A stretch of DNA of 45,239 bases from an uncultured Candidatus Saccharibacteria bacterium (GTDB taxonomy: Bacteria; Patescibacteriota; Dojkabacteria; SC72). The translations under genes and the position numbers were made by a program. The DNA is taken from positions 5,028 through 50,266 of the forward strand of contig CAZSUV010000004.1 in assembly GCA_964610125.1 (NCBI GenBank). The letters run 5' to 3'. The notes below the pieces were generated by a model. It made no database searches, was not told the DNA's origin, and was given only the letters and a program-made list of their open reading frames with translations. Numbering within the stretch: the stretch's first letter is position 1; every line of letters begins with the position of its first letter. This document shows, piece after piece, positions 35,132 through 37,382 of the stretch.

Positions 35132-35212
35132 AGCTTTTGATATAGATATATCAATTTGCTCGTTTTTCAACCATCAATTATTTGATGGATCATATTCATT
35201 TAGGAGGATAGC

Positions 35213-35647
35213 ATGGATCTCGATGAGGTTTTAAATACTGTTGCAGAAAAAACGGAGAAGATGACTCGTTTACGAGGTGCTGTGGCAGTTGCTTGTCTCA
35301 CAGACAGCGGTTTGAAAGTGATTTGTATTCCCGTAAACGTGGGCAAGAAATTTCGACATGAGAATAGGTTTCGAGAGAAAATGCCCGATCTTAACCTTGA
35401 TTCCCTGGAAAAAGAATTTCTTTTCTTTGCCACTGAAGATGCTGTTATCACGCTTGGACAACTCTTCTTTGACATGAATCATCATAGTGATGAAGCAGAA
35501 GAGGATGATTGCGACGACGCAGATTTAGCATTAAGTGGTAACGCCTCTTGTGGTTATATAATCGATGCCTGTACTGCGGCCAGTATTATGATTAGCCCAA
35601 TGGATCAGAAGTTTGAGAATCTTCTAATTCAAAAAATGATGAAATGA
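35213..35647 (+). CDS. Orphan cassette protein 1 (144 aa)
   Basis: AGGAGG at 35202-35207; acidic Cys-containing patch; no recognised family. Confidence 0.8.
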   Translation: MDLDEVLNTVAEKTEKMTRLRGAVAVACLTDSGLKVICIPVNVGKKFRHENRFREKMPDLNLDSLEKEFLFFATEDAVITLGQLFFDMNHHSDEAEEDDCDDADLALSGNASCGYIIDACTAASIMISPMDQKFENLLIQKMMK

Positions 35648-35656
35648 ACTATGAGC

Positions 35657-35705
35657 AAAACGAGCAACCGGCAGGTATATGTAAAAATATACCTGTCCGG
35701 ATGCT
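35657..35705 (+). repeat. Cassette 1 3' element (ACGAGC plus long hairpin)
   Basis: CCGG CAGGTATAT GTAAAA ATATACCTG T CCGG with outer AGCA/TGCT. Confidence 0.8.
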
Positions 35706-35725
35706 TCAAGAGAATGAAATTACAA

Positions 35726-35756
35726 TATTTATTTCCTCATTGGCCTGTAGTACAAT
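35726..35756 (+). promoter_or_regulatory. Cassette 2 promoter/repeat
   Basis: TATTTATTTCC at 35726-35736 and TACAAT at 35751-35756. Confidence 0.7.
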
Positions 35757-35824
35757 ATGGCTAAGATACATAAGGTATCATTAGCTCGTAATACATTCAA
35801 AATACCGGAAAGGAAAGGTGAACC

Positions 35825-36259
35825 ATGACCCGTGAATATGTAGGGCAATCATTACTTGCGCCAGTAGATATGTCTGTAAGGAATACCATCGCAAAGTTTG
35901 ATCCCTACAAAATCGATGATTCGATGGTATCTCAGAAAGCTGGGCAAATAGAATATGATATTAAAGGAAAAAATGGTACATACAAAATTCTATTTCTTTA
36001 CCCAAAGACTTGGGATACAGAACCGTTTAAACCATTTGAGGGGAGGAAATCATCTCAGGTATTCTTTGAGATGAGAGGGGACGAACCTCCACATTTGGAT
36101 ACTCACTTAGGTCCAGAGTATGTAGAAAAATATCTGCCTATATGGCATATATATATTTTCTTTACATATTCCCTAGCTGGAGAAGTATTGATCAGTAAGG
36201 AGTTTCTCAATGAGATGTTAGAGATGTTAGTTCAAGAATTCCGGCAAAATTTGAAGTAG
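35825..36259 (+). CDS. Orphan cassette protein 2 (144 aa), paralog of protein 3
   Basis: GGAAAGGTGA SD-like site; shares KGK...YPK.W and KY.P motifs with 36439-36858. Confidence 0.8.
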   Translation: MTREYVGQSLLAPVDMSVRNTIAKFDPYKIDDSMVSQKAGQIEYDIKGKNGTYKILFLYPKTWDTEPFKPFEGRKSSQVFFEMRGDEPPHLDTHLGPEYVEKYLPIWHIYIFFTYSLAGEVLISKEFLNEMLEMLVQEFRQNLK

Positions 36260-36260
36260 A

Positions 36261-36315
36261 ACGAGCTGAGCCTACAGGTATCTGTAATTTTAATTGGATA
36301 CCTGTAGGACTTAGC
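36261..36315 (+). repeat. Cassette 2 3' element (ACGAGC plus long hairpin)
   Basis: GCTGAG CCTACAGGTATCT GTAATTTTAATT GGATACCTGTAGG A CTTAGC. Confidence 0.8.
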
Positions 36316-36328
36316 ATAAATAAACAGT

Positions 36329-36359
36329 TATTTATTTCCAAACAGACTTATAGTATAAT
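36329..36359 (+). promoter_or_regulatory. Cassette 3 promoter/repeat
   Basis: TATTTATTTCC at 36329-36339 and TATAAT at 36354-36359. Confidence 0.7.
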
Positions 36360-36438
36360 AACGGCTAAATACATAGGTATTATAGCTCGTTCTACCACAA
36401 TGCAATTTCGCATTGTGTCATATTCTTAAGGAGGAAAA

Positions 36439-36858
36439 ATGGATTCGTTAGGTATAAGTTTAGCAGAACATTTCAAAAGTGACTTTGCTCTTGCAGCAGA
36501 ACAGTTCATTAGTACTGTTGTAATGTCTTCACAGAGAACAACCCTGAAGGAAGATTCTGGACGAATTAAAGTCTCGTTGAAGGGCAAAATGCTTATTTCT
36601 TGTATTTACCCTAAAGAATGGGAAAAGTTTGAATACATTCCGCTTGGTAAGCATAAGGAATACAGATCTTTTTCAGTTTTGCGACATCAAAAAGGAGAAC
36701 CAATAGAGTGGGAAGAGTTCAAAGATATTGGGAAATACAGTCCGACGCTCAATATCCTTGTAGCTCTGACGGTTGATGGAATCGCAGATTCCCCAGAAGC
36801 AAAAGAGCTTCTGGAGTTATTCTGGAATCAGCTTGTCCCTGTTCTGATGGGAAATTAA
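36439..36858 (+). CDS. Orphan cassette protein 3 (139 aa)
   Basis: TAAGGAGG SD; paralog of protein 2. Confidence 0.8.
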   Translation: MDSLGISLAEHFKSDFALAAEQFISTVVMSSQRTTLKEDSGRIKVSLKGKMLISCIYPKEWEKFEYIPLGKHKEYRSFSVLRHQKGEPIEWEEFKDIGKYSPTLNILVALTVDGIADSPEAKELLELFWNQLVPVLMGN

Positions 36859-36893
36859 CCAACATTAGGTCATATTTTTAAGGAGGAAAAACG

Positions 36894-37328
36894 ATGGGTT
36901 TTAATGATGACGATAGTAAGGATGGACCTGGGAAGAAAACTTCTTCTCAAACGGTGACGAAAATTGAAGACTTCGAAAGCCGTATCAGAAAAGCAATTAA
37001 GCCAAGTGACGAATTCAACGCAACATATGTTATGGCTGACCTTCGTGAAGCACCAGGCCGTTTTCTTCTCGGGGTTGTAGGGAACAAATTGAAGCAAACT
37101 TCAATAGCGCATTCTCATCGAGATATCGTGGATTGTCTGCTCCGATTTGTTAAGAATGAACCTGAGTCGTATGACTACCTTGGTTTAATCGCCTCTCCAT
37201 CAGGAAAAGTTGTAGTTATCTTCCATGTGATGCGAGTAGGTGGTCTTGTCTCTGATGATGTGCATCCATTTGTGGTTCAGGATGAGGAGATTAAGGAGCG
37301 GCTTAAGCCTATTCTTGAGAATATGTAA
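36894..37328 (+). CDS. Orphan cassette protein 4 (144 aa)
   Basis: TAAGGAGG SD; second ORF of cassette 3. Confidence 0.8.
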   Translation: MGFNDDDSKDGPGKKTSSQTVTKIEDFESRIRKAIKPSDEFNATYVMADLREAPGRFLLGVVGNKLKQTSIAHSHRDIVDCLLRFVKNEPESYDYLGLIASPSGKVVVIFHVMRVGGLVSDDVHPFVVQDEEIKERLKPILENM

Positions 37329-37382
37329 TGGTAGGACGAGCAGCCGACAGGTGTATGTAATCTATACACCTGTCGTATGTTC
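37329..37382 (+). repeat. Cassette 3 3' element (ACGAGC plus long hairpin)
   Basis: GAGCA GC CGACAGGTGTAT GTAATCT ATACACCTGTCG TA TGTTC. Confidence 0.8.

Follow-up and report, generated by a model that had tools for sequence, protein, structure and literature searches.

Predicted pairing of leader and 3' end in a variable array of gene cassettes between tRNA-Met and ftsH of an uncultured Dojkabacteria genome

Introduction

Why should several different small genes, placed one after another at a single chromosomal site, each carry a leader that is complementary to its own 3' end? The question is raised by a 45,239-nucleotide stretch of DNA (hereafter, the window; positions 5,028 to 50,266 of contig CAZSUV010000004.1, assembly GCA_964610125.1) from an uncultured Candidatus Saccharibacteria bacterium, placed by GTDB in the Dojkabacteria, in which three repeated units fill the interval between efp/tRNA-Met and ftsH. 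Judged from its sequence, window 35101-37400 is an array of three independently transcribed gene cassettes with four open reading frames (ORFs) of 139-144 amino acids (aa). Here, we report that the leader-to-3'-end pairing of these cassettes is a real feature of the sequence and that it is, with good probability, a selected RNA structure of the + strand. As to its role, our modeling favors, at about even confidence, cassettes built on a shared frame in which the selected pairing most likely acts as an end-to-end clamp that would protect the mRNA.

To our knowledge, pairing between the 5' and 3' ends has been described for few bacterial mRNAs (hbs and icaR), in each instance for a single gene. 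The present locus appears to extend this theme of interaction between 5' and 3' untranslated regions (UTRs), and it does so in a cassette array that, within the library searched, seems previously undescribed; there, the published full texts on Saccharibacteria gene cassettes and on Patescibacteria integrons or attC sites describe no such system. The same architecture on different, exchangeable genes provides a naturally replicated setting in which to study the effect of end-to-end pairing. Were the fold real, it would follow that the C-terminal codons of unrelated proteins can be constrained by RNA structure and that the untranslated parts of a gene can change more slowly than its coding part; a compact, portable expression frame would also be usable in reporters. 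In addition, the locus shows a variable cassette site next to a tRNA in genomes with otherwise very little accessory DNA.

Results and Discussion

The window units 1, 2 and 3 are referred to as W1, W2 and W3, and the genome that contains them as G000 (781,511 bases in four contigs, 35% G+C, completeness 99.76%). For the pairing tests, they were joined by six related cassettes from four other genomes (n = 9). All of the arms listed in the original prediction, which had been made from the letters of the window, were found in place. In unit 1, helix 1 joins TTGCTCGTTTT (35156-35166) to AAAACGAGCAA (35657-35667) by 11 Watson-Crick pairs, and helix 2 joins 35190-35201 to 35642-35654, with one C bulged. 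Unit 2 forms four helices within 35781-35810 and 36239-36269, one U:G pair among them, while unit 3 pairs 36385-36397 with 37329-37341 and 36419-36430 with 37314-37325, with one U:G apiece. All three mismatches in these helices are U(5'):G(3') on the + strand, in keeping with the earlier claim that they would be G:U pairs there. When whole units were folded to their minimum free energy, the helices of units 2 and 3 were recovered exactly; in unit 1, the register was shifted (35155-35163 with 35651-35659), because two copies of the 3' arm stand side by side there (TGAGCAAA adjoining ACGAGCAA, window 35651-35667). In the unit 1 ensemble, the second copy of the 3' arm is recruited into the local 3' hairpin (P = 0.96).

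The pairing stands out from the genomic background. When 75 nucleotides (nt) of leader were cofolded with the trailer, and 297 other genes of G000 were treated in the same way, the free-energy difference (ddG) of the nine cassettes ranged from -8.3 to -23.5 kcal/mol, against a background mean of -5.85 (standard deviation 3.47, 5th percentile -11.8), and eight of the nine fell within the lowest 4% of that background. The cofolded architecture was identical throughout (9/9): a 5' hairpin, helix 1, an optional hairpin and helix 2, with helix 1 spanning 9-13 base pairs (bp) and the combined helices reaching ~20 bp in cassettes without the internal hairpin. Full-length ensembles agreed, in that the expected number of pairs between leader and 3' end was 16.9-29.0 in the nine cassettes and averaged 6.0 in 79 background genes of G000 (95th percentile 15.7, maximum 27.6), so that every cassette exceeded the background 95th percentile. 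When the complete 3' hairpin was part of the fold, pairing of GAGC with the leader reached P >= 0.86 in seven of nine cassettes (W1 uses the duplicated copy, and the cassette G022A is split 0.52 to 0.44), and the stop codon paired with the leader at P >= 0.65 in eight of nine.

The fit is also largely specific to the partners. Only 18 of 20,000 permutations of leaders and trailers paired as well as the cognate set, and W1, W2 and W3 were each the best of all non-family partner combinations in both directions; for G008A, G002A, G006A and G022A, some non-family partners fitted better than their own. Duplex energies compared with dinucleotide shuffles gave z scores from -0.7 to -7.4, significant for most cassettes, and to that extent the expectation that the helices would be favored over shuffles was borne out. 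Fixed-window duplex tests are poorly suited to these helices because of their internal hairpins and bulges, and the cofold and full-length ensembles were used instead.

How the arms vary bears on whether such complementarity was selected or simply inherited. The SD-proximal arms (SD, Shine-Dalgarno sequence) of the nine cassettes are variants of one motif with a common TTC:GAA, and the pair beside it is A:U in six cassettes and U:A in three, with the following positions flipping on both sides too. The pair flanking GCTC:GAGC is T:A in two cassettes, A:T in five and broken in two; the two broken pairs occur in cassettes at the last position, where the 3' flank is a property of the position. A 7-bp extension, TCTACCA::TGGTAGG, is found in unit 3 alone. 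Across cassette families, then, both sides of the helices change together by our alignments, and the earlier description of the units as repeated cassettes that keep their end pairing while their sequences differ holds for all nine. Not noted there is that the 5' arms are variants of one shared motif and hence not fully independent inventions. Within the p1 family (three members), the GCTCGT helix, which is helix 1, is invariant, and it therefore carries no covariation information; RNAalifold on the three p1-type cassettes kept helix 1, lost helix 2 and found no compensatory change there.

The same family nevertheless provides a measure of constraint. Pairwise likeness was 0.86/0.71/0.66 for the leader, 0.83/0.67/0.63 for the last 30 nt of the ORF and 0.88/0.60/0.68 for the trailer, against 0.33-0.72 for the ORF body, and as aligned here, the leader, ORF end and trailer of the p1 family are more conserved than the ORF body. 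The protein C-termini are alike as well (..QKMMK, ..RQNLK, ..IQNKE, ..RQMKE and ..ILENM), and the reason that unrelated proteins end in similar residues is that the 3' arms are coding.

These observations allow the simplest alternative to be weighed, namely, that the pairing has no function and that complementarity was inherited with a duplicated, AU-rich frame and kept by chance. The leaders do share one motif, helix 1 does not vary within the p1 family, AU-rich leaders and Lys/Asn-rich 3' codons pair easily (non-cognate leader-trailer pairs average -11.2), and 16% of the 79 background genes reach at least 15 end-to-end pairs in their minimum-free-energy fold. We nevertheless give this explanation very little credence, as it would leave unexplained why the untranslated parts are more conserved than the ORFs, why both sides of the helices change together between families, why all nine cassettes exceed the background 95th percentile, and why the ends of unrelated ORFs, an HbpS-like one among them, each match the leader of the same cassette.

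If the structure is selected, the strand on which selection acts should be visible in its G:U pairs and in its placement. The original prediction had proposed selection on the + strand, and this part of it stood clearly for the hairpins: those at the 3' end are more stable on the + strand in eight of nine cassettes (energies summing to -249.1 versus -217.9), with 18 G:U pairs on the + strand versus 4 on the - strand, and those at the 5' end favor the + strand in seven of nine. For the long-range helices themselves, the bias is weak. The placement of helix 2 at the SD and stop codon speaks for a role at the RNA level, as far as position can indicate one, and altogether we regard a selected + strand RNA structure as probable.

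The claim that the structure brings the stop codon near the SD was upheld in eight of nine cassettes, in which the predicted partners of the stop codon are leader bases -15 to -33, located 3-20 nt 5' of the SD. Between the end of helix 2 and the SD there are 0-9 nt, and the 3' arms extend from stop-20 to stop+20 and thus into the last codons, as had also been noted. Such a geometry would suit closed-loop translation, in which the stop codon is docked beside the SD and ribosomes or 30S subunits released at termination reload the same mRNA, raising output; that the 3' arm does not consistently reduce the accessibility of the SD is compatible with it. We nonetheless consider this quite unlikely, given that a terminating ribosome covers the 3' arms and so melts the very helix meant to position it, and that the distance from stop codon to SD differs widely among cassettes. 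Nor do we know of any bacterial precedent for re-initiation via a long-range fold, and the published full texts in the library searched on long-range stop-codon/SD circularization in bacteria contain nothing describing such a system. A broader version would have a small-genome lineage keep swappable, fast-evolving genes on a closed-loop mRNA chassis, with termination and initiation sites held together and ribosomes recycling. This we regard as a long shot; were it true, constraints of RNA structure would dictate the last codons of otherwise unrelated proteins, and the system would be a bacterial counterpart of eukaryotic mRNA circularization on a new kind of cassette array without integron machinery. 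As for the circularization stem that had been suggested among possible roles, nothing in the analysis supports it.

The same proximity to the SD could, conversely, serve negative control, in that the duplex limits translation or makes a substrate for RNase III, and proteins are made only briefly after transcription. The predicted accessibility of the SD is reduced by the 3' arm in W3 (from 0.50 to 0.07), G006C (0.65 to 0.13), G008B (0.35 to 0.15) and G022A (0.50 to 0.35), the genome encodes an RNase III (135.9 bits), and the combined helices attain ~20 bp where the internal hairpin is absent. Accessibility is, however, unchanged in four of the nine and rises in one (W2), and the terminal hairpins at both ends suggest stabilization over destruction. 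A toxin-like silencing of the mRNA finds a model in the hok/sok type I toxin-antitoxin system, in which the 3' end of the hok mRNA folds back on the 5' end of the full-length transcript. The cassette products differ from such toxins in being soluble proteins of 134-156 aa, mostly acidic and not small and hydrophobic. No antisense RNA was seen, though no search aimed at one was made, and the one promoter-like match on the - strand (35154-35127) is at chance level. Another precedent is the icaR mRNA of Staphylococcus aureus, whose long 3' UTR contains an anti-SD motif that covers the SD (Ruiz de los Mozos et al. 2013, PMC3868564). Like the cassettes, it has 5' and 3' regions that pair within one bacterial mRNA, in a duplex that RNase III may read. 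The cassettes differ in that their 3' arm consists of the ORF end plus ~20 nt and mostly stops short of the SD; a 3' tract complementary to the SD and blocking it, as in icaR, is not what the cassettes show, as they have no anti-SD tract in the 3' arm and accessibility falls in only four of nine. Negative control therefore seems to us unlikely.

The reading that we favor instead, a protective clamp, resembles what is known for hbs of Bacillus subtilis, in whose mRNA a 14-nt tract just past a 5' hairpin base-pairs with a second tract immediately ahead of the terminator, restricting cleavage by RNase Y (Braun, Durand and Condon 2017, PMC5737220). The two have in common a small ORF, one or more 5' hairpins, and a tract behind these whose partner adjoins the upstream side of the 3' terminal hairpin (here in 9/9 armed cassettes), and the helices are of similar size (14 bp in hbs, 9-13 bp in helix 1 of the cassettes). 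The cassettes differ from hbs by adding a second helix, which ends at the SD on one side and takes in the last codons with the stop codon on the other, and by having a design common to a set of different, exchangeable genes. Long-range pairing with a ribosome-binding site occurs in vivo in B. subtilis, according to a recent preprint (PMC12697547).

In the mechanism that we propose, the leader of the finished + strand RNA would pair with the 3' end, closing the mRNA into a loop. The clamp and the two terminal hairpins would then shield the leader and the 3' end from ribonucleases and might insulate each cassette mRNA; with a hairpin at the start, a hairpin at the end and the leader tied to the 3' end, the modeled transcript has the look of one made to withstand ribonucleases. 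At every termination event, the clamp would have to open, as the 3' arm is covered by the terminating ribosome; this would tie the fate of the mRNA to its translation, and the state of the clamp and translation would therefore be linked, whichever the direction of effect. RNase III could read the duplex.

Several points weigh against this reading. Transcript start, 3' end and folding are all predicted by modeling, and both helices would face competition from ribosomes occupying the SD and the stop codon. The sample comprises nine cassettes from five related genomes, and one further cassette (G006 B, 1 of 10) has no arms at all, the remaining nine carrying them. The leaders are variants of one motif (TCATATTC..AGGAGG), and the pairing is therefore partly inherited, not independently evolved. 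The helices are AU-rich, and their preference for the + strand is slight (five of nine cassettes; sums of -148.7 versus -136.8). Some cassettes are unremarkable in individual tests: the cofold ddG of G008A (-8.3) lies at the 21st percentile of the background, the duplex of G006A was matched by 64 of 300 shuffles, which is where the expected advantage over shuffles failed, and in a fixed 28-nt window, helix 2 alone placed four of nine cassettes in the lowest 5% of 301 genes and left the other five unremarkable. Finally, ACGAGC can instead lengthen the local 3' hairpin, an alternative that prevails in W1 and ties in G022A.

The frame that holds these helices has an order common to every unit: a -10 box, a 5' hairpin, a GCTCGT arm, a second, cassette-specific arm reaching the SD, the ORF, the complementary arms and a 3' hairpin. 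The complementary 3' arms overlap the last codons, the stop codon and ACGAGC. A small internal hairpin lies between the leader arms of units 1 and 3, and the 5' hairpin folds in all nine cassettes despite their differing sequences. Each unit has the motif TATTTATTTCC and a -10 box (TATAAT or TACAAT), which form the direct-repeat families D1 (three copies) and D2, and the 3' hairpins of the units, 32-38 nt long, GC-rich and with no U-run behind them, form families D3 and D6.

On the + strand, unit 1 starts with a promoter-like module of family D1 (TATTTATTTCC at 35101-35111, -10 TATAAT at 35126-35131) whose activity is suggested by its sequence; it has a poor -35, and the sigma-70 scan made no call there. 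A 5'-proximal hairpin (GATATA-GA-TATATC, 35139-35152) precedes the leader, in which the helix-1 arm (35156-35166), an internal hairpin (35171-35188) and the helix-2 arm (35190-35201) lead to the SD, AGGAGG, at 35202-35207. The ORF p1 (144 aa) spans 35213-35647; the 3' arms (35642-35654, which includes the stop codon TGA at 35645-35647, and 35657-35667) are followed by a hairpin at 35668-35700 with no U-run after it. Unit 2, likewise on the + strand, has its D1/D2 module at 35726-35736 (TATTTATTTCC) and 35751-35756 (TACAAT), a 5' hairpin at 35765-35779 and its leader arms within 35781-35810. Its ORF p2 (144 aa) spans 35825-36259, the stop codon TAG at 36257-36259 lies within the 3' arms (36239-36269), and the hairpin occupies 36271-36308.

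Unit 3, on the + strand as well, differs in holding two ORFs. Its D1/D2 module (TATTTATTTCC at 36329-36339, TATAAT at 36354-36359) is followed by a 5' hairpin (36368-36381), the helix-1 arm (36385-36397), an internal hairpin (36396-36417), the helix-2 arm (36419-36430) and the SD (36428-36434). The ORF p3a (139 aa, 36439-36858) is separated from p3b (144 aa, 36894-37328) by a second ribosome-binding module (TCATATTTTTAAGGAGG, 36863-36891), which is repeat D4; no promoter, arms or hairpin were found between the two. The stop codon TAA (37326-37328) lies between the 3' arms (37314-37325 and 37329-37341), and the hairpin spans 37344-37375. From this layout, unit 3 may be two fused cassettes. Either of the two ribosome-binding modules could serve as partner for the 3' arm of this unit.

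The cassette -10 context TRTAGTAYAAT occurs 16 times in G000, 3 of them in cassettes, and TGNTATAAT occurs 88 times. The cassettes seem, from their sequences, to use the host promoter type and not a private one. Canonical terminators (a hairpin plus a T-run) were not enriched in window 32000-40000, where the count was 4 and shuffles predicted 4.4. Hairpins without a U-run, as in the cassettes, may serve as the ordinary 3'-end signal here, or else may not be terminators.

What the cassettes are doing at this site is informed by related genomes. A p2 relative at 40% identity led to G008, of the same genus, in which the same tRNA-Met/ftsH site holds two cassettes, one p2-like and then one p1-like. 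Among 27 family loci with both the tRNA and ftsH in view, the site is empty in 24, with ftsH starting ~16-124 nt after the tRNA. Occupied sites were seen in G000 (the window, three cassettes), G006 (three), G008 (two), G002 (one, with a frameshifted ORF) and G022, of another genus (one). A search of 120 genomes of the order for ACGAGC plus a hairpin found true cassettes, among the matches inspected, only in these five, always at this site; it also gave one match to a reversed control and two further forward matches (G116 and G051). The G116 match (L159) lies inside a gene. In a separate scan of genome contigs, for which the pattern was too degenerate, the one Saccharibacteria-labeled match among those listed (L083) lies inside a long ORF with no cassette features. 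The sole metagenome contig matched by the p1 alignment (L160) was spurious, with high GC. In viral contigs, neither p1 nor p2 had a relative, and the hairpin pattern had no match.

Several comparisons point to cassette exchange. In G000, G008 and G006, the cassette position beside ftsH keeps its own type of hairpin, whereas the leader downstream of the -10 box moves together with the ORF. Other metagenome runs yielded contigs, matched at 85% likeness and representing related organisms, with different arrangements: in one (X5 record 13), the tRNA end is joined directly to unit 3, with 31 differences in 937 bases; in a second (X6 record 18), unit 2 lies in other flanks, with 56 differences and 4 gaps in ~700 bases; and in a third (X7 record 27), a W1-like leader is followed by 396 other letters and then the last hairpin. 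In further contigs, homology breaks at the end of the -10 box and at ACGAGC, and the order of modules differs. Each junction has TATTTATTTCC, which resembles ATATTTCC of the empty site, and 12 bp of complementarity (inverted repeat I7) link the 3' arm of unit 2 to the 5' arm of unit 3. On the evidence of these loci, the cassettes are an array polymorphic for gain and loss at a conserved site.

Such mobility raises the possibility of a DNA-level element, in which the inverted repeats or hairpins would be recombination sites (attC-like or akin to terminal inverted repeats) and the RNA pairing a by-product. Cassettes that come and go at one site, homology breakpoints at the -10 box end and ACGAGC, junctions that carry TATTTATTTCC like the ATATTTCC of the empty site, and the 12-bp pairing between units 2 and 3 would all accord with it. 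The architecture argues otherwise, as helix 2 lies inside the cassette at the SD and stop codon, where there is no reason for a recombinase site, the GCTCGT arm lies ~25 nt inside the variable part and not at its edge, and the interruptions of the helices are G:U on the + strand. Machinery is missing as well. The attC motifs (inverse core RYYYAAC, core GTTRRRY) were found in none of the nine cassette 3' regions, and no reverse transcriptase was found in G000. The Xer-like gene found 1.4 kb upstream has 96-99% identity to its counterparts in six congeners, three of which (G001, G003 and G004) have empty sites; one other tyrosine recombinase of G000 is on another contig, and from these genes, no array-specific recombinase is evident. 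We judge a DNA-level element very improbable. Homologous exchange via the shared promoter and hairpin modules would suffice to move cassettes.

Known mobile systems were compared on the same grounds. An integron was rejected, attC motifs being absent (0/9) and no IntI-type, array-specific integrase lying adjacent. The cassettes do share with integrons and with the recombinase-associated rAID-1 arrays of Bacteroidales, small co-oriented genes described by Ross et al. (bioRxiv 10.1101/471110), the placement of co-oriented, small, variable genes at one site with repetitive intergenic sequence (here D1-D3 and D6). They differ in that each has its own -10 box, none has attC cores and no array-specific recombinase accompanies them. 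The rAID-1 genes encode immunity to interbacterial toxins, and the four window proteins matched no family in Pfam, NCBIfam, PHROG or PADLOC. A retron was rejected, there being no RVT_1 match (reverse transcriptase) in G000. Phage morons are single genes with their own promoter and terminator, and the cassettes are likewise autonomous one-gene transcription units inserted between conserved genes. Their site is, in contrast, chromosomal and adjoins a tRNA gene, and no phage link was found, for which reason a moron was rejected too.

Two of the related genomes contain irregular cassettes. In G006 (L035), a 41-nt copy of the ftsH promoter/leader occurs at ~1730-1770 and ~2445-2485, upstream of the last cassette; it is followed by only the 3' half of a cassette hairpin and resembles a recombination scar. 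The cassette B ORF of the same genome (1323-1727, 134 aa) has no GCTCGT/ACGAGC arms. In G002 (L033, reverse complement 776-1106), the ORF is frameshifted, with a start frame of 25 codons and the remainder in another frame, while the arms and hairpin are kept; this ORF could be a pseudogene or an assembly error.

The cassette proteins are 134-156 aa long, soluble and mostly of negative net charge, with a maximum Kyte-Doolittle hydropathy (19-residue window) of 0.87-1.73. No Pfam, PHROG, PADLOC or NCBIfam family matched the four window proteins, and the ESM Atlas gave no lead. The acidic p1 has relatives at 57% (G008) and 32% (G006) identity; a word-indexed protein search with p1 returned only p1 itself, and its AlphaFold model, with a predicted local distance difference test score (pLDDT) of 48, was unusable. 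For p2, a family profile searched against 1.84 billion representatives yielded 10 proteins only, and the AlphaFold model (pLDDT 80) found SycE as its best PDB match (E = 0.011, template-modeling score ~0.25), which is unconvincing. The proteins p2 and p3a are distant paralogues (24% identity over 133 aa), and hhalign detected no relation of p1 to p2 or to p3b. The only cassette product with a family name is that of G022 (L037 5692-6159, - strand, 156 aa), which is HbpS-like (PF03928, E = 5e-6, 27 bits, cut-off 25); the frame therefore carries at least two unrelated folds.

The borders of the variable site are conserved genes. On the left, efp (34441-35001) lies upstream of tRNA-Met (CAT; 35026-35101, + strand; called by ARAGORN, Rfam tRNA 70.8 bits), and on the right, a promoter-like site (37403-37431, + strand) precedes the ftsH ORF (37512-39377, + strand). 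Rfam at its gathering score found nothing but the tRNA (35027-35100) across 35100-37450. Upstream of efp lie the Xer-like tyrosine recombinase (32725-33612, - strand; Phage_integrase 93.6 bits) and a DivIC-like septum protein (33753-34199, + strand). The identity of the recombinase across the genus, 96-99%, exceeds that of EF-P (83-97%). Elsewhere, the window contains a tmRNA gene (9237-9647, 113.5 bits) and, truncated by the window end, 556 positions from the start of a 16S rRNA gene (44676-45239). In genomes of genus g18 (L015, L026 and L027), the gap between efp and tRNA-Met is ~0.8-1 kb, versus the usual ~25 nt, and other DNA is therefore inserted between efp and the tRNA.

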